A model generated the notes under the pieces. That model was not told the DNA's origin. It did not search any database and saw nothing but the letters and a program-made list of their open reading frames with translations. A program made the translations under genes and the position numbers. DNA of 64,000 bases, taken from assembly GCA_964423315.1 (NCBI GenBank), contig CAYREO010000005.1, forward strand, positions 31,834 through 95,833. Direction: 5' to 3'. Shown piece after piece: positions 6,698 to 54,828 of the stretch. The DNA is from an uncultured Eubacteriales bacterium. Its GTDB lineage: Bacteria; Acidobacteriota; Aminicenantia; Aminicenantales; Saccharicenantaceae. Within the stretch, counting starts at the first letter, position 1. Each line of letters starts with the position of its first letter.

Positions 6698-6782
6698 GGG
6701 CAGGTGGCGGAATCGGCAGACGCGCTAGGCTTAGGACCTAGTTCCTGATGAAGGAGTGCGGGTTCGAGTCCCGCTCTGCCCA
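6698..6782 (+). tRNA. tRNA-Leu (anticodon TAG), type II with long variable arm
   Basis: Folded by hand. Acceptor GGGCAGG/TCTGCCC; 3-bp D-stem with an 11-nt loop; anticodon stem CTAGG/CCTAG with loop CTTAGGA (U33, anticodon UAG, G37); variable arm TCCT-GATGA-AGGA; T-arm GCGGG-TTCGAGT-CCCGC; discriminator A. CCA not encoded. Confidence 0.85.
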
Positions 6783-6859: not shown

Positions 6860-8137
6860 ATGAACGAAGATCAAAGAAGACACACACGGCTCGTCGATGT
6901 CAGTCCCAGCCGCAAGGAGCTGGAGATCGAGATCCCGGCCGCCGAGGTCGGCCGGGAATATGATCGGGTATGGGGGGAATACACGAAACAGGCCAAGGTC
7001 CCCGGCTTCCGCAAGGGTCACGCGCCGCGCGAAATGGTCAAGGGCCTTTTCGACCAGGACATCAAGCATGATGTCTACGATGCCCTGATTCCCCGGGTCC
7101 TCGACGAAGAGCTCGAGCTCCTCGGGCTGAAGCCGGTGAACATCCCCTCAGTCCGTGACCTCACCCATGAGGAAGGCGGGCCCCTCCGTTGCAAGGCCGC
7201 CTTCGAGGTCCTCCCGGAGTTCGAGCTCCCCGATTACCGGGCCATCCAGGTCCCCCCCAAGACGGTCTCGGTGGAGGACGCCGATATCGACAAGGCCCTG
7301 GATGAGATCCGGGCCCGGGCCGCCGAATTCGTCCCGGTCGAGGGCCGCGGAGTGGAGGCCGGGGATTACGTCACGGTCGAGATGCAGGGCCGGGACATGA
7401 GAACAAGACGGCTGCTGCCGGTCGAAAAAGCCGTTGTTTTGGCCGGGCACGCCGACAATGAGCCCGCCCTCAATGAACGGCTGGCCGGCATGGTCCCCGG
7501 CGAGACCCGCTCGTTCCAGGTCTCCTACCCCAAGGACCACGTCAACCGGAGGGTCGCCGGCAAGGACATCGAATACAGCCTCAAAGCCGGGGACATCAAA
7601 GCCAGGAAGCTCCCTGAACTTGACGACGAGTTCGCGAGGTCCGTCGGTAACTCGACAGGCCTGGATGACCTCCGGGAGAAGGTCCGGCGGGAGCTCCTGG
7701 CCGCCCGGGAAAGGGCCGCCAGGACCGAGACGGCCTCGGAAGTCCTGGCCGAGATCGCCCGCCGGGTCCCGCTGGAGCTGCCGGCCTCGGTCGTCGAACA
7801 GGAATCGTTGTCCGTCCTCCGGCGGATGCTGAGCGCCGCGAGGGGCCGCCGCTTGACGCCGGAGGCCCTGGAGTCGCTGAAGGGGGAGGCCAGGCGTCAA
7901 GCCGTCGACCGTCTGACGAATCACCTGATCATCGAGAGGATCGCGGCCAAAGAGGGCTTCGGGGTCGCGGAGGACGAGATCCAGGCCGAGATCCGGGGCC
8001 TGGCGGAAGCCAATGGCGTGGCGCCGGCCGCTCTCGAGGAGATGCTCACCAGGGAGGGGAGGAGGGAGGAGATCGCCGAATCACTCCTGTTCCGGAAGAC
8101 TGTTGACTTTCTCATAAAAACGGCTATAATGAGTTAA
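6860..8137 (+). CDS. tig: Trigger factor
   Basis: 425 aa with the ribosome-binding N-domain (GFRKGHAPR signature), a PPIase-like middle domain and a C-terminal domain. TAA stop. Confidence 0.9.
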   Translation: MNEDQRRHTRLVDVSPSRKELEIEIPAAEVGREYDRVWGEYTKQAKVPGFRKGHAPREMVKGLFDQDIKHDVYDALIPRVLDEELELLGLKPVNIPSVRDLTHEEGGPLRCKAAFEVLPEFELPDYRAIQVPPKTVSVEDADIDKALDEIRARAAEFVPVEGRGVEAGDYVTVEMQGRDMRTRRLLPVEKAVVLAGHADNEPALNERLAGMVPGETRSFQVSYPKDHVNRRVAGKDIEYSLKAGDIKARKLPELDDEFARSVGNSTGLDDLREKVRRELLAARERAARTETASEVLAEIARRVPLELPASVVEQESLSVLRRMLSAARGRRLTPEALESLKGEARRQAVDRLTNHLIIERIAAKEGFGVAEDEIQAEIRGLAEANGVAPAALEEMLTREGRREEIAESLLFRKTVDFLIKTAIMS

Positions 8138-8266: not shown

Positions 8267-10711
8267 ATGCAGGATCCCAGCGAACATCCGGAGGTCCTCA
8301 GGAACATCCCTCTCATCCCCCTGAGGGACCTCGTGGTCTTCCCGGCCACCCTGGTGCCCTTCATCGTCGGGCGGTCCTCTTCCATTCAGGCCCTGGAGAA
8401 GGCCGCCGAAAAGGACAAGATGATCTTCTTGGCCGCCCAGATGGACGCTTCGATCGACAACCCGGCCCCCAAGGACATCTATTCGGTCGGGGTCACGGCC
8501 AAGATCATCCGGACCATCCGGAGCGACGAACGGAACATGAAGGTCATCGTCGAGGGCAAGAGCCGGGCCCGGATCGTCGAATACCTCAGCACGACCCCGT
8601 TCTACCAGATCCTGGCCAAGGTCGTCCGGGAGGTCGACGACCGGGTGCCGGAATCCCGCGAGCTCCTGAAGAGGGTCCTGTCCCTTTTCGAGGACTATCT
8701 CAAGCTCAATCAGAACGCCAACCTCGACTCCATCATCCCGGCCCTGCGCGAGAACACGCCGGACCGGATCACGGACATCATCGCCTCCCACGTCTTCATG
8801 CCCCTCGAAGAGAAACAGAACCTCCTCGAGACCGTCAACAGCTTCGAGAGACTGAGGCGCCTCAATTACGTCCTGGAGAACGAGATCCTCAAGATCCACT
8901 CCGCCTATCAGAAGGACCCCCAGCGGGCCGCAAAGCGCCGGGCGGCCATGAAGGACCCCTCCGCCGTCGGGCAGAAGGGTTATCCGCCCCGTCCCCCGGG
9001 CTACCGGAAAGAGGACCAGCCCAACGAGATCGAGGAGCTTCGCCAGAAAGTCGCCAAGGCCAAGATGCCCCCCGACGCCGAGGAGAAGGCTTACAAAGAG
9101 ATCGAGAGGCTGGAGGCCATGCCCCCGATGTCCGCCGAGGCCACGGTCAGCCGGAATTATCTCGATTGGCTCCTGTCGCTGCCCTGGATCAAGAAGTCCC
9201 GGGAAAAGCGCGATCTCAAGGAGGCCGAGGCCATCCTCAACCAGGACCATTACGGCCTGGAGAAGGTCAAGGAGCGGATCCTGGAGTATCTCTCCATCCG
9301 CCAGCTCGTCAAGAACCCCAAGGGGGTCATCCTGGGATTCATCGGCCCCCCGGGCGTCGGCAAGAGCTCGCTCGGCAAGTCCATCGCCCGGGCCACCGGA
9401 CGGAAGTTCGTCCGGCTCTCCCTGGGCGGCGTCCGCGATGAGGCCGAGATCCGCGGCCACCGGCGGACCTATATCGGGGCCTACCCGGGCCGCATCATCC
9501 AGATGATCAAGCGCGGCGGGACGCGCAATCCCGTCTTCCTCCTGGACGAGGTCGACAAGATGAGCATGGACTTCCGGGGCGACCCGGCCTCGGCTCTCAT
9601 GGAGGTCCTCGACCCCGAGCAGAACAACACGTTCCTCGACCACTACATCGACACGGACTTCGACCTCTCTCAGGTCATGTTCATCGTCACGGCCAACATG
9701 GTCGAGCCCATCCCCAAACCGCTCATCGACCGCATGGAGATCATCCGCATCCCCGGCTACACCGAGGATGAGAAGCTCGAGATCGCCAAGCGGTTCCTGC
9801 TTCCCAAGCAGATGACGGCCCACGGCCTGACCGGAGAGAACATCCAATTCTCGGACCGGGCCCTTCTCAAGCTCATCCGGTGCTACACGCGGGAGGCCGG
9901 GGTCCGGAACCTGGAGCGCGAGATCACCACGGTCTGCCGGAAGATCGTCAAGAAGGTCGTCCAGAAGGGGAAGGACACCAGCGAACGGATCACTCCGAAG
10001 AACCTCGAGACATACCTGGGGATTCCCAAGTTCCGCCGCTCGGAGTTCGATAAGCGCGACGAGGTCGGGGTCAGCACCGGCATGGCCTGGACGGAATTCG
10101 GCGGCGAGCTGCTGCGGTTCGAGGCCACCAAGATCCATGGCAAGGGCAATTTCATGCTGACCGGCCAGCTCGGCGAGATCATGCAGTAGTCGGCCCAGCC
10201 GGCCTTCAGCTTCGTCCGCGGCAAGAACAACTAGCTCGACATCGCCCGGGACCTCCACCGGAACTCGGACATCCACATCCACGTTCCCGAGGGCTCGACG
10301 CCCAAGGAGGGGCCGTCGGCGGGCATCACCATCGCCACGGCCATCATCTCGCTCCTGACCGACATCCCGGTCAGCAAGAAGGTCGCCATGAGCGGGGAGA
10401 TCACCCTCAAGGGCAAGGTCCTGCCGGTCGGCGGCATCAAGGAAAAGCTCCTGGCGGCCTACCGGGAAGGTATCCGGGAAGCCATCCTGCCCCTCGACAA
10501 CCGGCCCGACCTCAAGGACCTGCCCAAGGTCATCAAGCAGAACATGACCATCCATCTCGTCGAGGCCATGGACGATGTCCTGAGGATCGCCCTGACCAAG
10601 GAGCTCCCCAAGAAGTCCGCGGACAGCCGCGACAAGAAGCCGGTCGAGCCGGAAAAAGCCCTCCCGGTAGGGGAGGGGGACGCGCCCAAGGAGCCCCCGC
10701 TGACCAACTGA
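8267..10711 (+). pseudogene. lon: ATP-dependent Lon protease (LonA), full length but interrupted by two in-frame TAG codons (10187-10189 and 10232-10234)
   Basis: ORF 8267..10189 carries the Lon N-domain and AAA+ module (GPPGVGKSS Walker A). The same frame reopens after the second TAG and runs to a TGA at 10709-10711, encoding the proteolytic domain ([21 protein letters not shown] catalytic Ser; [22 protein letters not shown]). Each TAG sits where E. coli and B. subtilis Lon have a conserved Glu (GEVMQ-E-S; SKTE-E-LG). Confidence 0.7.
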
Positions 10712-10772: not shown

Positions 10773-12089
10773 ATGACGGCGAAGAGAAACGACAACAGCG
10801 AGGTCAAGATGAAAGAACTCAACCTGGTCGACCTGGAAGAAAAGGATATCCCGACCCTCCAGAAGGTCGCGGCCGGCTTCGGCTTGGACGAGGCGGAGAC
10901 CGAGGGGGCCAGCAAGCATCACATCATCTTCAAGATCCTCGAGGCCCAGGCCAAGAAGCAGGGGCTGCTTTTCTCCGAGGGTGTCCTCGAGTGCCTCGAG
11001 GACGGGTTCGGCTTCCTGCGGGCCCCGGAGTTCAGCTACCTGCCCAGCCAGGACGACATCTATGTCTCCCCCTCGCAGATCCGCAAATTCCAGCTCCGGA
11101 CGGGCGACACCATCTCGGGCGTCGTCCGGGCCCCCAAGAACGGCGAGAAATACTTCGCCCTGATCAAGATCGAGGCCGTCAACTTCCTCCACCCCGATGT
11201 CATCATCGAGCAGCGGCGCAACGTCCACTTCGAGAGCCTGACCCCTCTCTATCCGTTCGAGATGATCAAGCTCCAGGACGGCAACCCCAAGAACATGAAC
11301 GCCCGGGTCATGGAGCTGCTGACGCCGATCGGCAAGGGCCAGCGCGGCCTGATCGTCTCGCCGCCCCGGGCCGGCAAGACGACCATCCTCAAAACGATCG
11401 CCAAGTCCATCGAGAAGAACCACCCCGAGATCTTCCTCATCGTCCTGCTCATCGCCGAGCGGCCCGAGGAGGTCACGGACTTCAAGCGCTCGGTCAACGG
11501 CGAGGTCGTGGCCTCGACCTTCGACGAGCCGCCGACCCGCAACGCCCAGGTCGCCAACATCGTCCTCGAGAAGGCCAAGAGGCTGGTCGAGATCAAGCGG
11601 GACGTCGTCATCCTCCTCGACTCCATCACCCGGCTGGCCCGGGCCCACAACTCCATCGTCCCACCCTCGGGCAAGGTCCTGTCGGGCGGCATCGACGCCA
11701 ACGCCCTTCAGAAACCCAAGAAGTTCTTCGGCTCGGCCCGCAACATCGAAGAGGGCGGCTCGTTGACCATCCTGGCCACGGCCCTGGTCGACACCGGGAG
11801 CCGCATGGACGAGGTCATCTTCGAGGAGTTCAAGGGCACCGGCAACATGGAGATCAACCTCGACCGGCGCCTGGTCGACAAGCGGACCTTCCCGGCCATC
11901 GACATCAGCCGCTCGGGGACCCGCAAGGAGGAGCTGCTCATCGAGGAGCAGGAGCTCAACCGCATCTGGATCCTGCGCAAGGTCCTCAGCCAGATGAACG
12001 AGGTCGAAGCCGTCGAGCTGCTCATCGACAAGCTCAGCAAGACCAAGACCAACCAGGACTTCATGGCCGCCATGAGCAAGGGCCTCTGA
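10773..12089 (+). CDS. rho: Transcription termination factor Rho
   Basis: N-terminal domain, cold-shock-like RNA-binding domain (GFGFLR) and RecA-like ATPase ([20 protein letters not shown] Walker A). TGA stop. Confidence 0.9.
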
Positions 12090-12228: not shown

Positions 12229-12257
12229 TTGACATCCCCTGGGGGCCGCACTAGACT
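12229..12257 (+). promoter_or_regulatory. Candidate sigma70-type promoter upstream of the BNR-repeat gene
   Basis: TTGACA (12229-12234), 17-nt spacer, TAGACT (12252-12257), about 100 nt before ATG 12361. Confidence 0.35.
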
Positions 12258-12360
12258 CTTCGTCGTCATGGGAAGATGCGACCCTGAGCGAGATGCGGGC
12301 CGGTCCCGGACCTCAGGGGGCAAGCAGCTTCTTATCTCAAAGAGAAGGGGAGCGGTCCTG

Positions 12361-15042
12361 ATGACGAAGATGTCGATAACGATCGAGGCGGGCGTTCTTG
12401 CGGTCCTGGTTTTCGGGGTTTTATCGGCCGCCGGTCCGCCGACCAGTCTTTCCGTCGCGCCCGCAATGCCGTCGGATCAGCAGCGAAGTCCGCTTCTCGA
12501 CTCCTGGCCGCGGCATGTCGACCATCGTGAAAGAACCGGATTCCGCCTGGATTGGATCTCCGTCGGCCCGGTCATGAACAGCGCCCGGGCCGCCTCGGTG
12601 AAGGGCGATCCGGACAGCCCAGGGACCCTTTATGTAGCCTTCGGTCCTGGGAACCTCTGGAAGACGACCGACAACGGACTGACCTGGAGGCCGATCTTCG
12701 AGAACCAGTCCACCTTGGGCATCGGGGATTTCGCCCTGGCCCCGTCGCGACCCGACACGATCTGGCTGGGATCGGGCGTCAACCTCAAGAAGCCGCGCAA
12801 CTTCACCATGCCGGGGACGGGCGTCTTCCGATCCGACGATGGCGGGTCGACCTGGCGGAACATGGGTCTTCACGACTCCTATCACATCGGGAAGGTCGCC
12901 GTTCACCCGAAAAATCCCGACATCGTGTTCGTGGCCGTCCACGGGCATTACTGGACGACCAACCGCAACCGCGGCCTCTATCGGACCCTGGACGGCGGCC
13001 GGACCTGGGAGCATGTCCTGTTCGTCGACGAAAGGACCGGGGCCAATGAGGTCGCCATGGCTCCCTCCGATCCCGACATCCTCTACGCGACGACCTGGGA
13101 GATCCATCCCGGCGTTTCGGGCCCCGCGAGCGGCGTCTACAAAAGCGAGGACGGCGGAGCAAGCTGGCGGCGGCTCGGGGGAGGGCTTCCGGACGGCCCG
13201 AAGACGGGGCGGATCGGCGTCGATGTCTCCTGGACCGATCCCGACAAGGCCTATGTCCTTGTCGACAATCTCAATATCAGCGACACCCGGGGCGCCGAGG
13301 TCTACAAGACGACCGACGGCGGGCGGACCTGGGCCCGGACGCACCGGGACGACCTCCTCATCTTTCCCGGGATCGGGTGGTACTTCACGGATATCTATGT
13401 GAATCCCAAGGACGACGAGGAGATCTTCGCCCTCGGCGTCCGAGTCGCCCGTAGCAGGGACGGCGGCCGGACGTTCGGGCTCATGGGCGGGAACGTCTTC
13501 CATCTCTTCCCGAACATCGCCGAGACCCTCCACCTCGACCACTGCGAGATGTGGATAAATCCGCGAGATCCCGACCATCTGGCTCTGGCCAACGACGGCG
13601 GGCTTTATGTCAGCCATGACAAGGGCGGGAGCTGGCTCCATCACAACAACCTTCCGGTCGGGGAGTTCTACACCGTTTCCGTGGACAACCAGGACCCGTA
13701 CATGATCTACGGGGGGACGCAGGACGATTCCTCTGTTTACGGCCCGGCCCGGGAATGGGACCCCCGGTTCCCGGACGGGTGGCGCTACGTCTGGCTCGAC
13801 GCCTGGTCCGGAGGCGACGGTTGCGTGACTTTCGCCGATCCCGGCGATCCGAATACGGTCTACTTTTCGTCGCAGCACGGCGGCTTACGCCGCAAGGACA
13901 TGCGGTCGGGGCGTTCGGTGCCCATCCGGCCGCGCCTGCCCAAGGGGCATCCGGGGCGCCTGGAATACAGTTTCATCACGCCCTATTTCCTGTCGCCGCA
14001 CAACCGGCTGACGCTCTATCACGCCGGCAACTTCCTCTTCAAGAGCCTCGACCGCGGCGATACCTGGCGTCTGATCAGTCCCGACCTCTCCCGGTCCTCC
14101 GATCGGGAGCGGACGTCCGTGGCCGCGGGTGCCGCCGCCGAATCGCCGCTCGACCCGGGGCTTCTCTTCGTCGGCATGGACCGCGGCGCCTTTTGGATCA
14201 GTCCGGACGACGGCCGGAGCTGGATCGAGAGATCGAACGGGCTTCCGAACCGCTATATCCGGAGCATTCGTCCCTCGCGCTTCGTCCGGGAGCGCGTCTA
14301 TGTCGCCGTCCCCGGCATCAACGACGATGATCTCGGCTGCCACCTGTTCGTCACCGAGGACCTCGGGGAGACATGGATACCGATCCGCGGCGATCTTCCC
14401 GATGAAACGGCTTACGTCGTCCTGGAGGACCCGAAGAACGAGAACATCCTGTACGCCGGCCTGCTCCGCGGGGTTTATATCTCGACCGATCGAGGCCGGA
14501 GCTGGTCGCTTCTCGGACCGAACATGCCCGCGGCCGCGGTCTCTGACCTGGCCATCCAGGAGAGGGAACAGGATCTCGTCGCCTCGACCTACGGGCGGGG
14601 GATCTATGTCATGAACATCCGGCCCATCCGCGAGGCTTTCGCAGGCGGGGGACCACCCGTCGCCGCCCGACTCTTCGACCCGCCGCCGGCCCGGCTGCCC
14701 TGGATCAATGACACCCATCGGGACCCGCGGCTGAGCACGGTCGAAAAGGTCCCGATCACCTTCTATTTGCTCCGCGATGCCGATGTGACCCTCCGCGTTC
14801 TGGATGCCGCCGGCAAAACGATATGGGCGAAGGACATCGCGGGCAAGAAGGGGTTCAATCAAATCCTCTGGGACCTTGTCGTCCGGACCGCGGACAGCCC
14901 GGAGGCCTATTTCACCCGTTACCGGGAATTCGCCCCGGCCGGAGAACACACGATCAGGATATCGGGCAAGGGGATCGATCTCGGCGCCCGTTTGATCATC
15001 CGGGAGCGAGAAACGCCCCCCGATCCCGTCATCATCGAGTAG
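12361..15042 (+). CDS. BNR/Asp-box repeat protein (sialidase/sortilin-VPS10-like beta-propeller), secreted
   Basis: Start at ATG 12361 (MTKMSITIEAGVLAVLVF signal). At least 7 Asp-box motifs (SxDxGxTW: DNGLTW, DDGGSTW, DGGRTW, DGGASW, DGGRTW, DGGRTF, KGGSW, RGRSW). TAG stop. Confidence 0.7.
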   Translation: MTKMSITIEAGVLAVLVFGVLSAAGPPTSLSVAPAMPSDQQRSPLLDSWPRHVDHRERTGFRLDWISVGPVMNSARAASVKGDPDSPGTLYVAFGPGNLWKTTDNGLTWRPIFENQSTLGIGDFALAPSRPDTIWLGSGVNLKKPRNFTMPGTGVFRSDDGGSTWRNMGLHDSYHIGKVAVHPKNPDIVFVAVHGHYWTTNRNRGLYRTLDGGRTWEHVLFVDERTGANEVAMAPSDPDILYATTWEIHPGVSGPASGVYKSEDGGASWRRLGGGLPDGPKTGRIGVDVSWTDPDKAYVLVDNLNISDTRGAEVYKTTDGGRTWARTHRDDLLIFPGIGWYFTDIYVNPKDDEEIFALGVRVARSRDGGRTFGLMGGNVFHLFPNIAETLHLDHCEMWINPRDPDHLALANDGGLYVSHDKGGSWLHHNNLPVGEFYTVSVDNQDPYMIYGGTQDDSSVYGPAREWDPRFPDGWRYVWLDAWSGGDGCVTFADPGDPNTVYFSSQHGGLRRKDMRSGRSVPIRPRLPKGHPGRLEYSFITPYFLSPHNRLTLYHAGNFLFKSLDRGDTWRLISPDLSRSSDRERTSVAAGAAAESPLDPGLLFVGMDRGAFWISPDDGRSWIERSNGLPNRYIRSIRPSRFVRERVYVAVPGINDDDLGCHLFVTEDLGETWIPIRGDLPDETAYVVLEDPKNENILYAGLLRGVYISTDRGRSWSLLGPNMPAAAVSDLAIQEREQDLVASTYGRGIYVMNIRPIREAFAGGGPPVAARLFDPPPARLPWINDTHRDPRLSTVEKVPITFYLLRDADVTLRVLDAAGKTIWAKDIAGKKGFNQILWDLVVRTADSPEAYFTRYREFAPAGEHTIRISGKGIDLGARLIIRERETPPDPVIIE

Positions 15043-15373
15043 CCTTCGGAGGTCTCTCGAACCGTCCGGGGACCCGTAAGAAATTGCTGCCCATTGCCTA
15101 TCAAGGCCGTAATGAAGAGAATAATGAGTCTAGCGCCGACGGCGAATAGCCCAGCTGAGGAGAAGGCGCGAGATCGCTCGAGACGCCCGGAACTTAGGAA
15201 AATATCACGTATTTTATTTAATATCAATTATTTACAATAAATGTGCAAGAACAGACGAAGGACAGGCTGCCAGGTGGGGGATCGACTTCCGAACAGGTCT
15301 GAGATACAACATCGATAGGGAACAGGCTATCGGTAAACAAAGCAGGCCTCTCAACAAAATGGAACGGATCACG

Positions 15374-15389
15374 AGTCGGCATGCCGACA
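15374..15389. repeat. 16-bp inverted repeat AGTCGGCATGCCGACA, copy 1; candidate non-canonical parS-like centromere site
   Basis: GTCGGCATGCCGAC is a perfect 14-bp palindrome. A near-identical copy lies on the other side of parAB. Same 16-bp TGT...ACA architecture as canonical parS. Confidence 0.4.
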
Positions 15390-15623
15390 ATCGATGAGGC
15401 GGAGCTGTCGTATTAATGTATAAACGCATCATCATGACAGGGACAGGCTCATGAGGCCGATCATAGCGGCCATTACAACGGTCCGGGAGCGGCAAAAATG
15501 GTCATTAATGTGCCGGGTCATGGATCGTTAGAACCAAGCGATTTCAGATAGATTATAAATTTAACAGGCAAAAACGGAAGCCGGTCATAACTGGATGCGG
15601 CGAGCGGTGATGTTGGAACCGGA

Positions 15624-15677
15624 GATATCCACAGTTGCCCATAAGTTGGGCGTCAGGGATATCCACAGATTGTGGAA
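15624..15677. promoter_or_regulatory. Cluster of three DnaA-box-like 9-mers
   Basis: ATATCCACA twice in direct orientation (15625-15633, 15660-15668) and TTCCACA inverted (15671-15677). Each is one mismatch from the TTATCCACA consensus. They sit in an AT-rich region, with a very AT-rich 50-bp tract at about 15200-15250. Confidence 0.3.
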
Positions 15678-15875
15678 TTCTATATCTCATTGAAGCTGAA
15701 CGAATAAGAGCCGCCCTGAAGATTGAGTCGCATAAGAAATATTATGTCAACTAATTAGGCCGGGCTTCAGATACGCTCTGCTTCATATTCCCTTTTGTTC
15801 TCGGGATCCAGTCGAAGGGCGAATTGCGCTTCTTCTGATCATGTTTTGGAGGCCGGGCCGGCTTTGATTTTCTTC

Positions 15876-16739
15876 TTATGCCTGCGCTTTCGGCCCGGCG
15901 GCTTCCTTCTGGCGCTTGATGCGCTCTATGATATCCTGAAGGATCTCGATGATCTCCTGCTTGGTGATCATCTGCTTTTTGAATTCGAGCCTCATCCGAT
16001 ATTTATCCGTGTCGTCAGGGACGAAATTATAAACATAATACTTCAGTTTCTTCGTCTTTCCCTTGAGGTATTTCGCCAGGTCCCGAGTGTCCTCCCGGGT
16101 CAGGCGCCGCTCGGCGATCTCCTTGGTCAGCTGGAGCATATCATCTTCCGTTTTTTGTTTAGCGATCTCGATGATCGTCGTCCTGCTGAAGACGCCTGAG
16201 GACTTCATGATATCCCGGACATGCTGTGGGATCCGGGCGATGGACAGGATCTCGGTGATCGTCGAACGGGCCTTGCCGATCTTCTCGGAGACCTGCTGAT
16301 GGTTGTACCCGTACATGTCGATCATCGCTTGAAGGCCGTCGGCCTCTTCAAAGATATCCAGGTCTTTCCTCTGCAGGTTCTCGATGAGCGCGATCTCCAT
16401 GGCCTCGCTGTCCTCGACCTCCATTTCGATGCAGGGGATCTCTTTGAGGCCGATGTTCTTGGAAGCGATGAACCGACGCTCTCCGGCGATGATCTCGAAC
16501 CGGGCTCCTTTGGAACGCACGAGAATGGGCTCGAGGATGCCCTTGCTGCGGATGGAATCCATCAGCTCTTCGATGTTGCCGAGCTCGCAGCGCGCCTGAT
16601 GCGGGTTGGGATCGATCCGTTCGAGAGGGACCATCCGGATGCGCGGCCCCAAGGACCTTGACGAGATGAGATCGACGAAATGGCCATCGTGTCTCATGGC
16701 GACGGATTCCGGAAGCCCGGATCTTTTTGTTTTAGGCAC
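15876..16739 (-). CDS. parB: ParB/Spo0J partition protein
   Basis: ParB N-terminal box (ILEPILVR...EIIAGERRFIAS) and HTH (QQVSEKIGKARSTITEIL). Overlaps the parA stop by 8 nt. TAA stop. Low GC. Confidence 0.9.
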   Translation of the reverse strand: MPKTKRSGLPESVAMRHDGHFVDLISSRSLGPRIRMVPLERIDPNPHQARCELGNIEELMDSIRSKGILEPILVRSKGARFEIIAGERRFIASKNIGLKEIPCIEMEVEDSEAMEIALIENLQRKDLDIFEEADGLQAMIDMYGYNHQQVSEKIGKARSTITEILSIARIPQHVRDIMKSSGVFSRTTIIEIAKQKTEDDMLQLTKEIAERRLTREDTRDLAKYLKGKTKKLKYYVYNFVPDDTDKYRMRLEFKKQMITKQEIIEILQDIIERIKRQKEAAGPKAQA

Positions 16740-17496
16740 GGTGAATGATCTCCTCGGCGACTTTCCGGTACTGCTCGGCCCCTATGGAGCCGGGCGCATA
16801 GGTGAAGATCGACTCCTTATAGGCCGGGCTTTCTTCGAGCTTGACGCTCTTCGAGATATAGGTCTTGAACAGCTTGTCCCCGAATACTTTGCGGATCCTG
16901 GCAACGACGTCCCTAGCCAAATTCGTCCTCTTGTCGTAGAGCGTGATGAGAACCCCCAGGACTTTGAGATTGGGATTGGCGATCCTTCGAACTTTTTCGA
17001 TCGTTTCCAGGAGGTCATCGGTGCCTTCAAGGCACAGGTAAGATGACTGGATCGGGATCAAAATGTAATTGGCGGCGACCAAAGCATTGAGAGTGATAAG
17101 TCCCAATGTCGGCGGCGTGTCGATGAAGATATATTGGTATTTATGCTTGATGGGCTCGAGAGCGTCCTTGAGCCTGAAGTGACCGTCGAATTCGCCGATC
17201 AAGGAAGGCTCGAGCTTGGCCATCGAGATCTTCGTGATAGCCATGTCGAGCCCCGGAATGTTGGACCGGACGATAACGTCCTCGAGCTTATCGCCTTTCT
17301 TCATTAGAACGTCATAGAGGGATTTCTCGTATTTTTCGGGGCTGGCCACGGTAGAAATGGTGCTGTGGGCCTGAGGGTCGGTATCGACAAGCAAGACCTT
17401 CTTTCCCATCAACGCCATCGCCGCGGAAACATTGATCGATGTCGTCGTCTTCCCGACCCCACCCTTCTGGTTGGTGATGGCAATGATCACATCCAA
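16732..17496 (-). CDS. parA: ParA/Soj partition ATPase
   Basis: Deviant Walker A KGGVGKTT and ParA-type motifs (VLLVDTDPQ). 254 aa. TAA stop. Low GC. Confidence 0.9.
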   Translation of the reverse strand: MDVIIAITNQKGGVGKTTTSINVSAAMALMGKKVLLVDTDPQAHSTISTVASPEKYEKSLYDVLMKKGDKLEDVIVRSNIPGLDMAITKISMAKLEPSLIGEFDGHFRLKDALEPIKHKYQYIFIDTPPTLGLITLNALVAANYILIPIQSSYLCLEGTDDLLETIEKVRRIANPNLKVLGVLITLYDKRTNLARDVVARIRKVFGDKLFKTYISKSVKLEESPAYKESIFTYAPGSIGAEQYRKVAEEIIHRA

Positions 17497-17592
17497 CTCC
17501 CGTCCAAGGCGATATCTATTGTGCCGCAGAGGTTACTTTATAACCAAGGACACAATAAAAATCAAGGAAAATCAACATCCATGAAATTAAAA

Positions 17593-17608
17593 TGTCGGCG
17601 TGCCGACA
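17593..17608. repeat. 16-bp inverted repeat TGTCGGCGTGCCGACA, copy 2; candidate parS-like site upstream of parA
   Basis: 15 of 16 positions match the copy at 15374-15389 (arms TGTCGGC/GCCGACA). It lies about 100 nt upstream of the parA start, embedded in an AT-rich tract. Confidence 0.4.
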
Positions 17609-17859
17609 ATTTTCTTAAATACCACTTAATAAATAAGATAATGTCACAATAAAAGCGCAGCAGCATATTTTCATGAACAGCGTAAGCTGAGTGTCTGAAT
17701 AATAGCGCTTCTATCGGCAACGTAAATAATTGATAATAAACAAAATACAGATATTCTATAACGCATTGAAAACAAATGAATTACGGCCTCATTAAATCTC
17801 CTGAAAAATGAGAATATTGTAGCGAGTGACGCGGGAGGAAATTTTTCATAGAATGATGT

Positions 17860-19314
17860 TTGCATGGTCTGGCGATGCAGAAAGAAACAGTTCCTGGCTT
17901 CTTGAGACGGCTGAACGTTCTCGATACGGCGTTCCTTGTCGTCGGTGCGGTCATCGGCTCGGGCATCTTCATGACCCCGGGGATCATCGCCGCCGGCCTC
18001 CCCTCCCCCGGGCTCCTCCTTCTCGTATGGATCGCGGGGGGCCTCATCACTTTGTGCGGAGCGCTCGCATTCGCCGAATTGGGGGCCATGTACCCGCAAG
18101 CGGGAGGCCAATACATCTATCTTCGGGAAGCCTACGGGCCGGGGGCGTCATTCCTTTTCGGCTGGGGGTTCTTCGGGTTCATCATGTGCGGAGGGCTGGC
18201 CGCCCTGGCCGTGGCGTTCGCTGAATTCTTAGGGGGCTTCTTTCCGGCGCTCTCGACGGAAAATATAATCCTCACGGTCCGCCTCCCCGGTCTCAGCCAT
18301 TCACTTTCGGCCGGCCAGCTGGTCGCCGCCGGGGCCATTCTCTCTTTGACCGCTGTCAATTCGCTGGGCATCCGGTCCGGAGCGGCCATCCAGAATCTCC
18401 TGACGCTTTTCAGGCTGGGTTCGGTCGCCGCCCTCGTCGTTCTGGGCCTCCTTGTCGGGGCCAAAGGGGGAGCGGACAACTTCCGTCTTCTCTTCCCCCC
18501 GGGGCCGGCTCTCCCCGACCTCCTCCGGCCGATCGGGCTGGCCTTGGTCGCCGTTTTCTGGACGTATGACGGCTGGTATGCGGTCAACTGCACGGCCGAG
18601 GAGATCCGCGACCCCGAGCGGACCATCCCCCGAGGCCTGGCGCTCGGGGTCCTGATTGTGACGCTCTGCTACGTCCTGGTCAATGCCGTCTACCTGCTGG
18701 CCCTGCCGATCGAAGAGATCAGGGGGGTTGTCCGGATCGGCGAAAAAGCGGCCTCGGCCCTGTTCGGGGGCGGCGGCGCCGGTCTTTTCGCGGCCGTGGT
18801 CATGGTCTCGATCTTCGGCTGCCTCAACGCCAATATCCTGTACGGTCCGCGGGTCTACTACGCCATGGCCAAGGACGGTCTCTTTTTCCGGTCCATGGGC
18901 CGCTTGAGCCCCCGGTACCGCGTCCCCGCGAACGCCCTGAGAGGACAAGCCGTCTGGTCCGCGTTCCTGTGCCTGTCCGGGACCTATCAGGCCCTTTACG
19001 AGTACATGGTTTTCGCGTTGCTCATGTTCTTCGCGGCCACGGGCGCGGCCGTCATCGTTTTGCGCCGGAAGTTCCCCGGCCGGACCAGACCCTACCGGAC
19101 GTGGGGATACCCCGTCGTGCCCCTGGTCTTCATGGCCATGAGCGGGGCCGTCTTTCTGAGCATCGTCCTTTCCCAGCCGCTCAAGTCCCTGATCGGCGCG
19201 GTCCTGCTCGGGGCCGGATATCCCGCCTACCTGTGGTGGGGATCCCGCCGTCCTTCTTGGTCAACCGGGAACGACAAAAAGGATATCCAGGAACCGCGAA
19301 ATCGCTTACAATAG
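17860..19314 (+). CDS. APC-superfamily amino acid/polyamine permease
   Basis: 12 predicted TM helices and an APC-family N-terminal signature (FLVVGAVIGSGIFMTPG). TAG stop. Confidence 0.8.
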   Translation: MHGLAMQKETVPGFLRRLNVLDTAFLVVGAVIGSGIFMTPGIIAAGLPSPGLLLLVWIAGGLITLCGALAFAELGAMYPQAGGQYIYLREAYGPGASFLFGWGFFGFIMCGGLAALAVAFAEFLGGFFPALSTENIILTVRLPGLSHSLSAGQLVAAGAILSLTAVNSLGIRSGAAIQNLLTLFRLGSVAALVVLGLLVGAKGGADNFRLLFPPGPALPDLLRPIGLALVAVFWTYDGWYAVNCTAEEIRDPERTIPRGLALGVLIVTLCYVLVNAVYLLALPIEEIRGVVRIGEKAASALFGGGGAGLFAAVVMVSIFGCLNANILYGPRVYYAMAKDGLFFRSMGRLSPRYRVPANALRGQAVWSAFLCLSGTYQALYEYMVFALLMFFAATGAAVIVLRRKFPGRTRPYRTWGYPVVPLVFMAMSGAVFLSIVLSQPLKSLIGAVLLGAGYPAYLWWGSRRPSWSTGNDKKDIQEPRNRLQ

Positions 19315-19338: not shown

Positions 19339-21123
19339 ATGACCGACGCGCCTTGCATCGTCCACATCCTTCCCGACGGGACCAAGGTCAAAGCCCGTCC
19401 GGGCGAGATCCTGGCCGACGTCTTGACCAAGGCCGGCGTTCCGCTCTCGCTTTACTGCCATAAGAAGGGCCTCTGCGGCAAGTGTGTCGTCCGCGTCATC
19501 GGCGGTCCCCTCCCCTTCCCTCATCCGGCCGAAGAGGCCTTGATCCGGGGAAAGCGGCTCAGCCCCGATCACAGGCTGGCCTGCCTCTACGAGATCCGGG
19601 GCGACATGACGGTCGAAATACCGCCGACCTCGCTTATCGGCCGGATCACCGTCCTTGAGACCGGCCTGGCGACATCCGTCGTCCCCGATCCCGCCGTGAG
19701 AAAGATCCCCATGACGTTGGAGGCCGGCGACGCCGGCTCCCCGTCGGCCGCTCTCGAACGGCTCGAAACCCGTCTGCAAACCCGCGATCTCGCCATGCCC
19801 CTGGCGGCTCTCGCCAAGCTCGGCGCTGGCGGCATCCCTTCCGGGAGCGAATTCACGGCCGTCCTCTACGGGGACCGCGAGGTCCTCGACATCGAGCCCG
19901 GTGACACGTCGGGCGAGGTCTACGGCTTGGCTGTCGATCTCGGGACCAGCACGATCGTCGCCGAGCTTGTCGACCTCCGGACGGGAGCGACCGTGACCCG
20001 GGCCTCGGCGATGAACAGCCAAGCCTCCTACGGGGCCGACGTCGTCTCGAGGATCACCTTCGCCTTCGAAGACCCCGACAACCTCCGCCGCCTCCGCAAC
20101 GCCGTCGTCCAGCTCCTCAACGAGCTCGTCGCCCAGACGACCCGCACGAGCGGGGTGCCCCGGCACAGGATCTACGACGCCGTCGTCGCCGGGAACACGG
20201 CCATGAACCACTTCCTGTGCGGCGTGCCCGTGGACTCCCTGGCCCTCGCCCCGTTCAACGCCGTCTTCGCCGCGCTGCCGGCGTTCCCGGCCTCGGCGAT
20301 CGGCCTCAATCTGGACCCCCACGCCCGGATCTATGTCGTCCCCAACATCGGGAGCTTCGTCGGCGGCGACATCACCGCCGGCCTGACCGCCTCGGAGATG
20401 GACGCCAAGCCGGGCCGGGAGCTGTTCATCGATCTCGGGACGAACGGCGAGATCGTCCTCAAGAGGGGCAGGGAATTCGCGGCCGCCTCGACGGCCGCCG
20501 GACCGGCTTTCGAGGGCATGAACATCAGCTGCGGCATGCTGGCCGTCGCCGGGGCCGTCCATCGCGCGGAATGGGACAACGGCTTCAAGCTGGGGACGAT
20601 CGACGGCCTGCCTCCGGCCGGGATCTGCGGGACGGGGCTCATCGACGTCCTGGCCCTGGCCCTCGAGCAGGGCCTGCTCGGCCCTGACGGGCGGATCGCC
20701 GCTCCCGGCAAAAAGATCGCGCTTGGAGAGGGTCTCGCCTTGACCCAGCAGGACATCCGGGCCGTCCAGCTGGCCGTGGCCGCCGTCCGGACCGGGGTGA
20801 CACTCATGCTCAGGGAGTTCCAAGTCTCCTCCCGCCAGCTCGACCGGATCCTCGTCGCCGGCGCGTTCGGCAGCTCGCTCGACGTCCGGAACGCCATGGC
20901 CATCGGCCTCCTGCCCCAAGTCCATCCCGGGAGGGTCACCTTCGTCGGGAACTCCTCGCTGGCCGGGGCCCGGAAGCTGCTCCTCGCGGGGCAGGCGCGG
21001 AAGGCCGCCGAGTCGCTGGCGGCGTCCGTGGCCCACGTGTCCCTGGCCGCGCGGCCCGGCTTCCAGGACGAGTTCGTCAAAGCCATGGAATTCCGGCCGT
21101 ACCGGGTAGCTGGTGATAAATGA
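19339..21123 (+). CDS. RamA-like ATP-dependent reductive activase of corrinoid proteins (N-terminal 2Fe-2S ferredoxin domain plus ASKHA/DUF4445 domain)
   Basis: N-terminus has a plant-type ferredoxin Cys pattern (CHKKGLCGKC...C). The C-terminal ~450 aa have the acetate/sugar-kinase-like fold signatures of the COG3894 RACo family. 594 aa. Confidence 0.8.
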   Translation: MTDAPCIVHILPDGTKVKARPGEILADVLTKAGVPLSLYCHKKGLCGKCVVRVIGGPLPFPHPAEEALIRGKRLSPDHRLACLYEIRGDMTVEIPPTSLIGRITVLETGLATSVVPDPAVRKIPMTLEAGDAGSPSAALERLETRLQTRDLAMPLAALAKLGAGGIPSGSEFTAVLYGDREVLDIEPGDTSGEVYGLAVDLGTSTIVAELVDLRTGATVTRASAMNSQASYGADVVSRITFAFEDPDNLRRLRNAVVQLLNELVAQTTRTSGVPRHRIYDAVVAGNTAMNHFLCGVPVDSLALAPFNAVFAALPAFPASAIGLNLDPHARIYVVPNIGSFVGGDITAGLTASEMDAKPGRELFIDLGTNGEIVLKRGREFAAASTAAGPAFEGMNISCGMLAVAGAVHRAEWDNGFKLGTIDGLPPAGICGTGLIDVLALALEQGLLGPDGRIAAPGKKIALGEGLALTQQDIRAVQLAVAAVRTGVTLMLREFQVSSRQLDRILVAGAFGSSLDVRNAMAIGLLPQVHPGRVTFVGNSSLAGARKLLLAGQARKAAESLAASVAHVSLAARPGFQDEFVKAMEFRPYRVAGDK

Positions 21124-22016
21124 GGAGCCTCCTCCTTCAACTCGCAGCGACCCGGCCCATCCTCCTCGACGGCGCCATGGGGACTGAGCTGATGGCCCGC
21201 GGGCTTCCCCGCGGGGCCTGTCCGGAAGCCTGGAACCTCGAACGGCCGGAGGTCGTCGCCGCCGTCCACGCGGATTACTTCGAGGCCGGGTCCGACGTCG
21301 TCTCCACAAATACGTTCGGCGGCAGCCGCATCAAGCTGGCCGGCCACGGGCTCGACGGCCGGACCTACGAGATCAACGCGGCCGCGGCCCGGCTGGCCCG
21401 GGGCGGGGCGCCCGCCGGCCGGTTCGTGGCCGGGAGCGTCGGGCCGACCGGGAAGTTCCTGAAGCCCCAGGGCGGATTCACCGAAGAGGAGTTCGAGGAC
21501 TCCTTCGCCGAGCAGGCCCGCGGCCTGGCCGACGGCGGGGTGGACGTGCTCCTTCTCGAGACGCACTACGACCTTCGGGAAGCCCTGGCCGGGGTGCGCG
21601 CCGCCCGTCGCGTGACGGGGATCCCCGTGTTCGTGACGATGACCTTCAACGCCCACCGCCGCGGCTTCTTCACTCTCATGGGCGACAGCGTCGCGACGTG
21701 CGCCGAAGAGCTCGAGCGGGCGGGGGTCGCGGCCGTCGGGGCCAACTGCACGCTCAACAGCGAGGAAATGGTCGGCGTGATCAGGGCCTTTGGATGGGCA
21801 ACGGCTCTGCCGCTCGTCGCCCAGGCCAACGCCGGCCGGCCCGTTCTGGGCGCGGACGGGAGCGTCGCGTATTCCCAGAGCTTGGACGACTATGTCAAGC
21901 ACGTCCCGGCCCTCATCGGGGCCGGGGCCCGTTTCGTCGGCGGGTGCTGCGGCACAGGCCCCGCCCATATCCGGGCCATGGCCCGGCTCGTCGCGAAAGA
22001 AGGAGTAACCGCGTGA
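21120..22016 (+). CDS. Homocysteine S-methyltransferase domain protein (MetH N-terminal Hcy-binding module, Pfam S-methyl_trans type), stand-alone
   Basis: ILLDGAMGTELM start, TIM-barrel Hcy-domain motifs and the zinc ligand motif GGCCGTGPAHIRAM. Its ATG overlaps the RamA stop (ATGA). Confidence 0.8.
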   Translation: MRSLLLQLAATRPILLDGAMGTELMARGLPRGACPEAWNLERPEVVAAVHADYFEAGSDVVSTNTFGGSRIKLAGHGLDGRTYEINAAAARLARGGAPAGRFVAGSVGPTGKFLKPQGGFTEEEFEDSFAEQARGLADGGVDVLLLETHYDLREALAGVRAARRVTGIPVFVTMTFNAHRRGFFTLMGDSVATCAEELERAGVAAVGANCTLNSEEMVGVIRAFGWATALPLVAQANAGRPVLGADGSVAYSQSLDDYVKHVPALIGAGARFVGGCCGTGPAHIRAMARLVAKEGVTA

Positions 22017-22663
22017 AGGAAGAGCTGTACAGGAACATGACGGAGGCCATCGTGGCCGGCGACCGGGCCCGGTCCGCCGCCCTGGCCGAAGAAGCCGTCA
22101 AGGGCGGTCTGGACCTGCTCGAGGTCATCGAAAAAGGCTATGTCCCGGGCATCCAGGAGGTCGGCCGGCTGTGGGAGGAGGGCGAGTACTTCCTGCCCGA
22201 GCTCATCACGAGCGCCGAGGCCATGAAAATGGCCATGGCCGTGCTCGAGCCCGAATTGGCCCGCCGGAGCCTCAAAGCCCGGACGGGGGGCAAGGTCGTC
22301 ATCGGCACGGTCGAGGGCGACATCCACGACATCGGCAAGAATCTCGTGGCCTCGATGCTCCAGGCGGGAGGGTTCGAGGTCCACGACCTCGGCGTCGACG
22401 TCCGCTTGGAACGGTTCGTCGAGACGGCCGAAGCGGTGGGCGCGGATTTCATCTGCCTCTCCGCCCTGCTGACGACGACCATGACCAACCAGAGGCGGCT
22501 CATCGCCATGCTCCGCGAAAAGGGCCTGCGGGACAAGTACAAGATCCTCGTCGGCGGGGCTCCCGCCAGCGCCAAGTGGGCCGAAGAGATCGGGGCCGAC
22601 GGCTACGCCGAGAACGCCGTGGCCGCCGTCAAGCTGGCCAAGTCCCTGGCCGGCCAGGGTTGA
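22013..22663 (+). CDS. B12-binding corrinoid protein (MtbC/MttC/MtgC-like: helical cap plus Rossmann B12 domain)
   Basis: DxHxxG cobalamin His-ligand motif (GDIHDIGKN) and Rossmann core (KVVIGTVEG...ADFICLSALLTTT). Start assigned to GTG 22013 (GTGA overlap with the upstream stop) because the N-terminal cap helix KEELYRNMTEAIVAGD would otherwise be lost. ATG 22037 is the alternative. Confidence 0.75.
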   Translation: MKEELYRNMTEAIVAGDRARSAALAEEAVKGGLDLLEVIEKGYVPGIQEVGRLWEEGEYFLPELITSAEAMKMAMAVLEPELARRSLKARTGGKVVIGTVEGDIHDIGKNLVASMLQAGGFEVHDLGVDVRLERFVETAEAVGADFICLSALLTTTMTNQRRLIAMLREKGLRDKYKILVGGAPASAKWAEEIGADGYAENAVAAVKLAKSLAGQG

Positions 22664-22683
22664 AGAAGGGAAGGACCGACATC

Positions 22684-24153
22684 ATGATCGAAGCGAAAAG
22701 ACCGAAGCTGGAGCTTCTGGACCGGGCCTTTGTCGAACGCATCGTGGATGAAGGCCTGACGCTCCTCGAGCGCCAGGGGATGATGATCGAGAACCCGGAA
22801 GCGCTCCGCCTTCTCGGAGAGGCCGGGGCGGACATCGACAGCGGCGGCCAAAGGGCCCGCTTGAAAAGGGACCTCGTCGAGACCTGCCTGGCCTCGACGC
22901 CGGCCTCCATCCGCCTTTACGATCGCGGCGGCGAGAAGGCGTTCGTCGTCGGCGGGGACGAGGTCCATTTCGACCCGGGCTCGGCGGCCGTGACCCTCCT
23001 CGACCATACGACCCGGGAGGAGCGCCGGGCGACGACCCGCGACCTCATCGATTTCTACAAGCTCGTCGAGACCCTGGAGAACATCCATTTCCAGAGCACC
23101 GGGCTGATCAGCACGGACGTCCCGGCCGCCGCCTCCGACGCCTACCGGCTCTATCTCGGGTTGTGTTTTTCGGCCAAGCCGTTCGTCACCGGGACCTTCC
23201 GGGTCGAGGGCTTCAAGCCGATGAAAGACCTGCTGGCCGCGGTCCGCGGCGGCGAAGAGGATCTCCGCCGCAAGCCCCTGGCCATTTTCGACGCCTGCCC
23301 CTCCCCTCCCCTCAAGTGGAGCCACCTGACCGCCCAGAGCCTGATCGACGCGGCCCGGGCCGGCATTCCCTCCGAGCTCATCTCCATGGGCATGACGGGG
23401 GCGACCTCGCCGGTGACCATCGCCGGGACCCTCGTCCAGCATGTCGCCGAGAGCCTCTGCGGCGTGGTCATTTGTCAGCTCGCCAAACCCGGCGCGCCGG
23501 TGATCTTCGGCGGTTCGCCGTCGAGCTTCGACATGAGGAAGGGCACAACCCCGATGGGGGCCATCGAGACGATGATGATCGACGCGGCCTACGCCCAGAT
23601 CGGAAAGTTCTTGAACCTGCCCACTCACGCCTACATGGGCCTGAGCGACGCCAAGGTCAATGACCCCCAAGCCGGTTTCGAGACCGCCCTGGGGGCTGCG
23701 CTGGGGGCCCTGGCCGGGGTCAACGTCATCTCCGGGCCGGGGATGCTGGATTTCGAGAGCGCCCAGAGCTTCGAGAAGCTGGTCATCGACGACGGCATCT
23801 GCGCCATGGTCTACCGGCTGCTGGCGGGCATCGCCCAGCGCGACGAGCCCATCGCCCTGGGGCTGTTCGAGGGCTTCACCCCCGACATGCAGTTCCTGTC
23901 CCATCCCCACACGCGGCGCTGGTACAGGAAGGAGCATATGCCCGCCGGGCTCGTTGACCGGGACCCCTACGACGCCTGGGTCGCGGCCGGCCGGACCTCG
24001 ATCGTCGACAAGGCCCATGCCGATGTCGCCCGGCGGATCGGGGCCTATGCGGCGCCCCCGCTGGACAAGGCCCTCGGCCGGGAGCTCGAGAGGATCATGA
24101 CCTCTTACGCCCGCGCCCAGGGCGCCGAGCATCTCCCGGCGCTGAATATCTGA
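22684..24153 (+). CDS. MttB-superfamily (trimethylamine methyltransferase family, COG5598) methyltransferase, non-pyrrolysine type
   Basis: 489-aa TIM-barrel MttB-family protein with no in-frame TAG, hence not a Pyl-dependent TMA methyltransferase. RBS GAAGGGAAGG precedes ATG 22684. The upstream part of ORF 22171..24153 is a spurious extension overlapping the corrinoid gene in another frame. Confidence 0.85.
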   Translation: MIEAKRPKLELLDRAFVERIVDEGLTLLERQGMMIENPEALRLLGEAGADIDSGGQRARLKRDLVETCLASTPASIRLYDRGGEKAFVVGGDEVHFDPGSAAVTLLDHTTREERRATTRDLIDFYKLVETLENIHFQSTGLISTDVPAAASDAYRLYLGLCFSAKPFVTGTFRVEGFKPMKDLLAAVRGGEEDLRRKPLAIFDACPSPPLKWSHLTAQSLIDAARAGIPSELISMGMTGATSPVTIAGTLVQHVAESLCGVVICQLAKPGAPVIFGGSPSSFDMRKGTTPMGAIETMMIDAAYAQIGKFLNLPTHAYMGLSDAKVNDPQAGFETALGAALGALAGVNVISGPGMLDFESAQSFEKLVIDDGICAMVYRLLAGIAQRDEPIALGLFEGFTPDMQFLSHPHTRRWYRKEHMPAGLVDRDPYDAWVAAGRTSIVDKAHADVARRIGAYAAPPLDKALGRELERIMTSYARAQGAEHLPALNI

Positions 24154-28659: not shown

Positions 28660-29118
28660 TCATCCTCGGAGCCATTCCTCCCAGACCGAGCGCCGGGGAT
28701 AATACATGAAGACGAGAAAGAGCGAAACGAAAGCCAGGGCATAGAAATCGATATTGAACCCGCCGAGCAGGAACAGGACGAACCCCAGGACCCCGGGGAT
28801 CTCGCTCAGGGCGAGCGTCAGGAGGCTCGTCCGATGGAGGCGGGCGAGGGCGCCCGCGGGATCATCCGGCGAGGGCCGTCCGCGCAGCGCCGGCCCCAGG
28901 ATCCGGACGAGGATGACCGCGGCCACGGCGGCGCCGTAAAAGGCATAGCGCAGAATAGGGTCGGGGGGCGCGGCCGCGAATCCCCTGAAAGTGAAAGGCT
29001 TGAGCTGGGACCGGATGAGCTCCACGAAGACGAGCATGATCGCCAGGCTGACCAGATTCGCCATGGCGACAAGAGAGGCGGACCGCAGGCGGGCTCGGAG
29101 CTCGTCGTGAACGTCCAT
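28660..29118 (-). CDS. Hypothetical membrane protein
   Basis: Four hydrophobic segments. Start ambiguous: MDVHDEL at 29118, or the ORF start at 29190. Confidence 0.4.
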   Translation of the reverse strand: MDVHDELRARLRSASLVAMANLVSLAIMLVFVELIRSQLKPFTFRGFAAAPPDPILRYAFYGAAVAAVILVRILGPALRGRPSPDDPAGALARLHRTSLLTLALSEIPGVLGFVLFLLGGFNIDFYALAFVSLFLVFMYYPRRSVWEEWLRG

Positions 29119-29241
29119 GTCGACCTCCCCGGGCGTGCCTGATGGCGGCGCGCTCGACGGGATTATAAGCGAAACGACGGCGGCAGGCAATGCCGTTGTG
29201 TCGCCGCCGCCGGGCGTTTATAATGGCCTGAGGAGCGATCG

Positions 29242-46340: not shown

Positions 46341-46457
46341 GTCGAACCTCCCCGGACCCGGATTCCCGGTCATTGTAATGCAGGTCCGGAAGGGCGTCAA
46401 GGAGCCGGTGGCGTTCGGCGGCAGGATGCATTTCCGCGCGAACTGTGCTACATTACG

Positions 46458-54822: not shown

Positions 54823-54828
54823 TGGACC

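Follow-up and report, generated by a model that had tools for sequence, protein, structure and literature searches.

Two identical in-frame stop codons within an otherwise intact gene raise the question of whether they are decoded as sense codons or whether they simply interrupt the gene. The question is posed here by the lon gene of an Aminicenantes-like bacterium, which lies in a 64-kb stretch of DNA, the whole of which was analysed and is referred to below as the window. From the comparison of this gene with its relatives, it is very probable that the two codons belong to a one-off private lesion, or to an error in the record, and not to a programmed decoding event.

The lon Reading Frame and Its Two Amber Codons

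The lon (LonA) gene occupies positions 8267-10711 of the forward strand, on which tig, rho and the tRNA gene described below are also found. According to the reading of the ORF and its translation, it consists of a single frame of 814 codons followed by a terminal TGA at 10709-10711, whose sole interruptions are a TAG at 10187-10189 (codon 641) and a second TAG at 10232-10234 (codon 656), spaced by 45 nt. The N-terminal substrate-binding domain, the AAA+ module and the lid of a LonA are present, the Pfam matches LON_substr_bdg, AAA and Lon_lid covering residues 14-204, 358-493 and 518-569, respectively. The S16 protease domain carrying the Ser-Lys dyad is instead interrupted: the match to the 205-position Pfam profile Lon_C is split into positions 2-67, before the first TAG, and 86-204, after the second. 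No frameshift was found in the gene, and all its motifs are intact, namely the Walker A motif GPPGVGKS (9344-9367), the Walker B motif FLLDEVDK (9536-9559) and, downstream of both TAGs, the catalytic-serine motif PKEGPSAG (10301-10324, Ser codon at 10316-10318) and the ten-residue motif containing the catalytic Lys (10430-10459, Lys codon at 10439-10441). An earlier note, made from the sequence of the window, had described two in-frame TAGs 45 nt apart in an otherwise continuous lon with its key motifs preserved, and both the translation and the motif check bear this out.

If translation terminates at codon 641, the predicted product is a protein of 640 aa comprising the N-domain, the AAA+ module with its Walker A motif, the lid and a stub of 66 residues of the protease domain, which would be devoid of proteolytic activity. 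No ATG, GTG or TTG occurs in frame between the second TAG and an ATG at 10388, from which the only possible restart ORF after the TAGs (10388-10711, 107 aa) would be translated. Since this ATG is located 24 codons beyond the catalytic Ser, an active protease fragment could not be produced by reinitiation. The earlier proposal of a 640-aa product that keeps the N-domain and AAA+ module but has no functional protease domain is thus upheld by the Pfam matches and by the lack of a restart codon ahead of the catalytic Ser.

The gene order alaS, SLT, DAGK, hyp, DUF2085, trypsin/TPR, tRNA-Leu, tig, lon and rho is the same in the relatives, and the tig-lon-rho synteny is common to them wherever the flanks were fetched. 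The conserved upstream neighbour, encoding the trigger factor (tig, 6860-8137), is intact, as is the conserved downstream neighbour rho (10773-12089), whose product differs by 3 aa from that of the closest relative, L001. One private change of Rho, K324N, was considered as a suspicious lesion and rejected, Asn being the E. coli state at that position and the change therefore benign.

Comparison With Relatives and Homologues

The best protein matches of the window lon are full-length Lon proteins of 812-813 aa with 92-96% identity, the closest of which (P0001, 813 aa) is 96% identical. It is from the database names of these closest homologues that the organism is identified as Aminicenantes-like. 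At the nucleotide level, seven loci (L001-L007) were fetched, corresponding to five distinct sequences with 83-95% identity over the aligned stretches. L001, L002 and L005 are three assemblies of one close relative, with 94.6% nucleotide identity in lon (the lon sequences of L001 and L002 being the same), L003 and L004 have 88.9% identity in lon, and L006 and L007 were found by means of a DNA pattern in which the variable bases were left open.

None of these relatives carries a TAG at either site. GAG is present at both positions in L001, L002 and L005, whereas L003/L004 and L006/L007 have GAA at the first site and GAG at the second. As the closest relative has GAG at both sites, each TAG is a single G>T step away from a Glu codon, just as the earlier note had supposed. 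Moreover, the 120 closest Lon homologues are unanimous in having Glu at the first site, and at the second 118 of them have Glu and the other 2 Asp. The same note had also assigned Glu to both sites in the Lon proteins of E. coli and Bacillus subtilis, which is correct for the first site and, with regard to the second, for B. subtilis only: the PDB alignments show Glu at the second site in B. subtilis and Thermus Lon and Lys in Yersinia Lon (RADKLGI), and E. coli Lon, which reads RAEKLGI, has Lys as well.

A scan of genome_contigs and metagenome_contigs with a 47-nt pattern (N at the variable bases) matched only GAG or GAA versions of the site, and exact-sequence look-ups of the 640-aa Lon fragment, Rho and trigger factor of the window gave no match on record. 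Among the sequences compared, both TAGs are thus private to this record.

Is UAG Decoded in This Genome?

One way in which the gene could remain functional would be the read-through of UAG, by pyrrolysine insertion, by a natural amber suppressor or in a context-driven manner, giving rise to a full-length Lon. In favour of this possibility are the frame that remains open after the TAGs, the preservation of all the catalytic motifs, the identity of the two stops, and the fact that the changes located 3' of the TAGs on the branch leading to the window still bear the mark of purifying selection. This last point is, however, equally well explained by a very recent lesion, and the other evidence speaks against decoding.

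First, TAG is a working terminator in this genome. Among the 46 other genes of the window, 34 end with TGA, 7 with TAA and 5 with TAG, in line with the earlier statement that TAG is used as an ordinary stop by at least four neighbouring genes. In two of the TAG-ended genes, hyp169 and DUF2085, the alignment to L001 runs up to the stop codon of the relative, and a third, encoding an amino-acid permease, ends 24 nt upstream of the start of the next gene. The TAG at 19312-19314 had been considered as a candidate for read-through and was rejected, since it separates two distinct genes, those of the amino-acid permease and of a RACo-type corrinoid activase. Within the 64-kb window, where in-frame stops were detected only in lon, UAG is not found inside many genes, nor is it unused as a terminator, as a genome-wide reassignment would entail.

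Second, no decoding machinery was found in the window. Neither a tRNA with a CUA anticodon nor any pyl gene (Pfam, main ORFs) is present in the window, and both are likewise absent from the flanks of lon in the relatives. The sole tRNA of the window, at 6698-6782 and identically placed in the relatives, is a tRNA-Leu with anticodon UAG, which serves the CUN codons of Leu and does not suppress amber codons. The MttB family is the classic site of pyrrolysine, and an MttB-superfamily gene lies in the window at about 22.6-24.15 kb; its frame is uninterrupted and contains no TAG. The similarity of lon to pyrrolysine decoding in methylamine methyltransferases is limited to an in-frame UAG in a functional-looking gene and to an MttB-superfamily cluster 12 kb away, whereas the MttB homologue is of the non-Pyl type, pyl genes are lacking in the window, UAG ends other genes and the UAG replaces a conserved Glu in this record only.

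Third, no signal for recoding is apparent around the TAGs. The predicted fold of the region 10150-10290 is no better than that of shuffled sequences (z = -0.63, compared with z = -0.49 for the relative devoid of TAGs), so that no stable RNA structure is present at or after the TAGs, and no Rfam match was obtained for an RNA element around them.

Finally, UAG is not conserved at the orthologous position, GAG or GAA being found in all five distinct sequences, nor do the codons flanking the TAGs show purifying selection. In fact, four further changes, T630M, A645P, I654N and Y655N, fall at near-invariant sites within 27 codons. A read-through product would still carry these four radical replacements, including a proline and two Asn in place of Ile and Tyr; the presence of four other damaging changes never seen elsewhere beside the TAGs thus implies that this segment has not been selected as part of such a product. 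A search of the literature for stop-codon recoding in Aminicenantes or in lon retrieved no report. Altogether, programmed read-through, suppression and UAG reassignment are not supported, and the production of full-length Lon by read-through is considered very improbable.

Conserved in-frame stops of bacterial genes, which are presumed to be read through, have been counted as such only when shared at the orthologous position by at least two species, so as to exclude artefacts (Belinky et al., 2021; PMC7918605). The stops of lon resemble those conserved stops in being in frame and in lying in a gene whose remainder has a dN/dS well below 1, but differ from them in that neither is shared by any relative.

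A Private Patch of Six Non-Synonymous Substitutions

The codon-level alignment to Lon relatives, which the earlier note had called for, was carried out and revealed what that note had missed, namely the four radical missense changes accompanying the TAGs. Both stops belong to a cluster of six substitutions within 78 nt (10155-10232), all six of them non-synonymous: C>T at 10155 (ACG>ATG, T630M), G>T at 10187 (GAG>TAG, E641*), G>C at 10199 (GCG>CCG, A645P), T>A at 10227 (ATC>AAC, I654N), T>A at 10229 (TAC>AAC, Y655N) and G>T at 10232 (GAG>TAG, E656*). The changes consist of substitutions only, mostly towards A/T, with a density of about 8% over the 78 nt. Some of them lie in or beside CCAGG, AGATCT and GAGCTC sites of the ancestral sequence.

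Not one of the 120 closest Lon homologues shows any of the six states, and all are absent from L001 and L003-L007 (and hence from L002). Outside the patch, by comparison, the window Lon has no never-seen residue at the well-conserved aligned columns (Fisher p = 2e-8). The clustering of nucleotide changes taken alone is unremarkable, as six private changes per 90 nt is the maximum, yet other stretches reach five; the signal of the patch is that all six changes are non-synonymous and hit invariant residues. Furthermore, G>T and T>A account for 4 of the 6 patch changes and for 2 of the 61 other changes of the branch (p = 3e-4), and this difference in spectrum indicates a process distinct from the ordinary divergence of the lineage.

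A similar cluster is present in 1 of the 120 database homologues (P0067), in which 5 never-seen radical residues occur within 27 aa, at alignment columns 611-627. Patches of this kind therefore occur as noise among metagenome-derived Lon sequences.

Selection Along the Branch Leading to the Window

The changes that occurred on the window's own branch were polarised against the sister L001 and the outgroup L003. In codons 1-629, 41 synonymous and 6 non-synonymous changes have accumulated, and in codons 657-814 the numbers are 11 and 3, respectively, for a total of 52 synonymous and 9 non-synonymous changes outside the patch. Codons 630-656, in contrast, show 0 synonymous and 6 non-synonymous changes (Fisher p = 5e-5 for the patch versus the rest). 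The protease domain located 3' of the TAGs hence looks as purified as the upstream part and as the sister lineage (9 synonymous and 2 non-synonymous changes), which implies that the gene has spent no measurable time as a pseudogene.

This result bears on the possibility that lon is a long-standing pseudogene, in decay since a second lon copy took over its function. Such a history would agree with a single gene carrying both stops along with four radical missense substitutions. However, a decaying pseudogene shows relaxed selection and lesions spread along its length, neither of which is found in lon: apart from the patch, nothing distinguishes the gene from an orthologue under selection, either upstream or downstream of the TAGs, it has suffered no frameshift, every motif is intact, and no second lon was found in the 64-kb window (Pfam, main ORFs). 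Moreover, after the first TAG, 4 changes fall within the next 15 codons and 3 within the following 158 (p = 1e-3), whereas neutral decay initiated by the first TAG would be spread over 158 codons, and stepwise decay cannot therefore explain the cluster. An old pseudogene is accordingly judged very unlikely. The second TAG, 15 codons past the first, has no selective explanation, and the pattern of changes points to all six of them being one clustered, unselected event.

Origin of the Patch

The TAGs would then be plain nonsense codons that arose together with the four neighbouring radical missense changes in one private, evolutionarily instantaneous patch, the LonA gene of this Aminicenantes-like bacterium being perfectly conserved in all other respects. 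Of the three explanations offered in the earlier note, very recent pseudogenisation and an assembly or strain artefact survive, while programmed amber read-through or suppression finds no support, the TAGs being absent from the relatives. Two main origins of the patch are left, one in vivo and one in the making of the record.

The likeliest single source would be an error patch in the record, which would not reflect the functional gene of the organism. Such a patch could derive from a local consensus built on a poor or damaged template, from an amplification jackpot or from a wrong path in the assembly graph, and the cell would in that case keep an intact lon with GAG at both sites. The density of the changes, their all-non-synonymous pattern, the redundant second stop and the odd spectrum resemble noise and not evolution. 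No ordinary mutational process of bacteria is known to change some 8% of the bases over 78 nt unless a recombination donor is involved. On the other side, a contig of at least 64 kb, if built from short reads, would imply a decent coverage, under which, following Lander-Waterman reasoning, a lone bad read would be outvoted, and the rest of the window is free of signs of poor sequence quality. In fact, a GC3-continuity scan of the whole 64 kb detected in-frame stops within coding signal only in lon, the nine genes comparable with L001 contain no frameshifts or stops, and no other cluster of radical private changes was found in about 2,900 comparable invariant codons. Two further candidates for in-frame stops, TGA 33653 and TGA 38720, were rejected, as they mark the gene boundaries between a histidine kinase and a response regulator and between IMP cyclohydrolase and AICARFT, respectively. 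Taking these points together, we give a technical origin of the patch, in preference to an in vivo one, roughly even chances.

Somewhat less probable, though a serious contender, is a genuine and very recent null allele, which would have arisen in vivo through a single clustered event hitting lon, for example when error-prone synthesis copied a damaged or single-stranded stretch, and would then have become the majority form in the sampled population. The TAGs are present in the sequence, TAG functions as a stop in this genome, translation could not restart ahead of the catalytic Ser, the good quality of the surrounding 64 kb is consistent with a true allele, and six non-synonymous changes with no synonymous one, mostly GC>AT or transversions, are what raw unselected mutation would leave. 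Raw mutation in vivo would likewise account for a patch made up of substitutions alone, most of them towards A/T. Bacteria deficient in lon are viable, as exemplified by E. coli B, whose deficiency is due to an IS insertion in the lon promoter. The parallel with this natural deficiency is that some bacteria tolerate being deprived of Lon protease activity, but the window lon differs from it in having nonsense codons within the protease domain, which would leave an N-domain plus AAA+ fragment, and in that nothing indicates a fixed or adaptive state. In-frame stops are also widespread in bacterial genes, most of them being short-lived polymorphisms (Belinky et al., 2021; PMC7918605). Against a null allele, six substitutions in 78 nt are far denser than the spontaneous multi-nucleotide events generally known in bacteria, purifying selection on Lon is strong in all 120 relatives, so that a null at majority frequency would be unexpected, and the allele is absent from every other assembly searched. 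The more specific proposal that a mutation shower (localized hypermutation) acting in vivo left LonA as an N-domain plus AAA+ protein with no protease, and that this allele now predominates in a natural population of uncultured Aminicenantes, is advanced only tentatively, being a little less probable again. Its more exotic variant, in which low-level UAG suppression would keep a trickle of full-length Lon, is at best extremely improbable.

A templated or targeted change has also to be considered, whether by gene conversion from a diverged copy, by quasi-palindrome template switch, by a diversity-generating retroelement or, on the technical side, by systematic base-calling errors at methylation motifs. 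The clustering of the changes and the location of some of them in or beside CCAGG, AGATCT and GAGCTC could be taken as hints of such a process. A functional donor, however, would have brought mostly synonymous differences and no stops, and the window contains neither a donor nor another copy of the patch, its matches not exceeding chance ones of 15 nt or less. Likewise, the changes do not improve the pairing or identity of any direct or inverted repeat, only short chance repeats being present. The similarity to diversity-generating retroelements and to localized hypermutation lies in the crowding of substitutions into some 80 nt; unlike the targets of such retroelements, lon is accompanied by no template repeat and by no reverse transcriptase in the main ORFs of the window (Pfam), the changes are not adenine-specific (C>T, twice G>T, G>C, twice T>A), and they hit the invariant core of an essential-type enzyme, introducing stops. 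Methylation-motif errors are rejected, since GATC, CCWGG, AGATCT and GAGCTC are kept at normal rates elsewhere. A templated or targeted change is considered extremely improbable.

Meaning of the lon Patch

The feature observed in lon is the ordinary "internal stop" disruption encountered in the annotation of genomes and MAGs, which denotes either a nonsense-mutated gene or a sequence error. It shares with such disruptions an otherwise intact housekeeping gene, private stops generated by single-base changes and the lack of recoding machinery in the window, and differs from them in that as few as 78 nt hold both stops and the four radical missense changes, synonymous ones being absent, a packing that points to one clustered event and not to stepwise decay. 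The case calls for caution, since two identical in-frame stops in an intact-looking, essential-type gene invite a story of recoding, and it is only when close relatives are compared that the lesion is seen to be private and clustered. Neither a technical nor an in vivo origin would bear on the evolution of the genetic code. If the origin is technical, the patch would be a local error in a public MAG, likely to be listed as a lon pseudogene by annotation pipelines. A real allele, on the other hand, would be a modest case from nature of mutations arising in a cluster and of an uncultured lineage losing Lon.

A probably noisy database Lon

Among the 120 database Lon homologues closest to the Lon of the window, one public sequence (P0067, source tag 'src') has seven never-seen residues at conserved positions between alignment columns 497 and 648, including FG>CW and KG>ND; these probably reflect noise in the reads of a sequence assembled at the protein level.

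Regions flanking lon

The tRNA-Leu(UAG) gene (6698-6782, +) lies between a trypsin/TPR gene and tig, a position common to four relatives (loci L001, L003, L004 and L006). Between rho and parBA, the window encodes a Sortilin/BNR (Asp-box) repeat protein of 937 aa (12229-15042, +), in place of which the relative L003 carries, at the corresponding slot, an MFS/TLC transporter and a 5'-nucleotidase. Since gene content differs between the two loci, the slot is strain-variable and adjoins conserved synteny. The intergenic DNA around parB (15876-16739, -) and parA (16732-17496, -) is markedly AT-rich, with a GC of 0.48 in 15043-15875 and 0.35 in 17497-17859, as compared with ~0.65 for the genome, and two identical copies of the box GATATCCACAG, DnaA-box-like with one mismatch, are located at 15623-15633 and 15657-15667. 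This flanking DNA is a candidate origin or partition region.

Other genes of the window

Three class-V aminotransferase (Aminotran_5) paralogues are found inside 6 kb (44970-46679, -; 47690-48835, +; 49907-51061, +), interspersed with one M20 peptidase gene and one D-2-hydroxyacid dehydrogenase gene. ORFs with a strong GC3 coding signal and no Pfam match occur at 25592-26458, 28660-29190 and 44515-44943 (all -), as well as at ~53.5-55.5 kb, where candidate ORFs overlap on both strands (53541-55500).

Corrinoid-dependent methyltransferase cluster

A complete corrinoid-dependent methyltransferase gene cluster (19339-24153, +) comprises a RACo-type activase (19339-21123), a homocysteine S-methyltransferase-family protein (21120-22016), a B12-binding corrinoid protein (ending at 22663) and an MttB-superfamily methyltransferase (up to 24153), all on the + strand. 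No TAG interrupts the reading frame of the MttB gene, which is therefore of the non-pyrrolysine type. The cluster would suggest a capacity for quaternary-amine or methylamine demethylation in this Aminicenantes-like genome.
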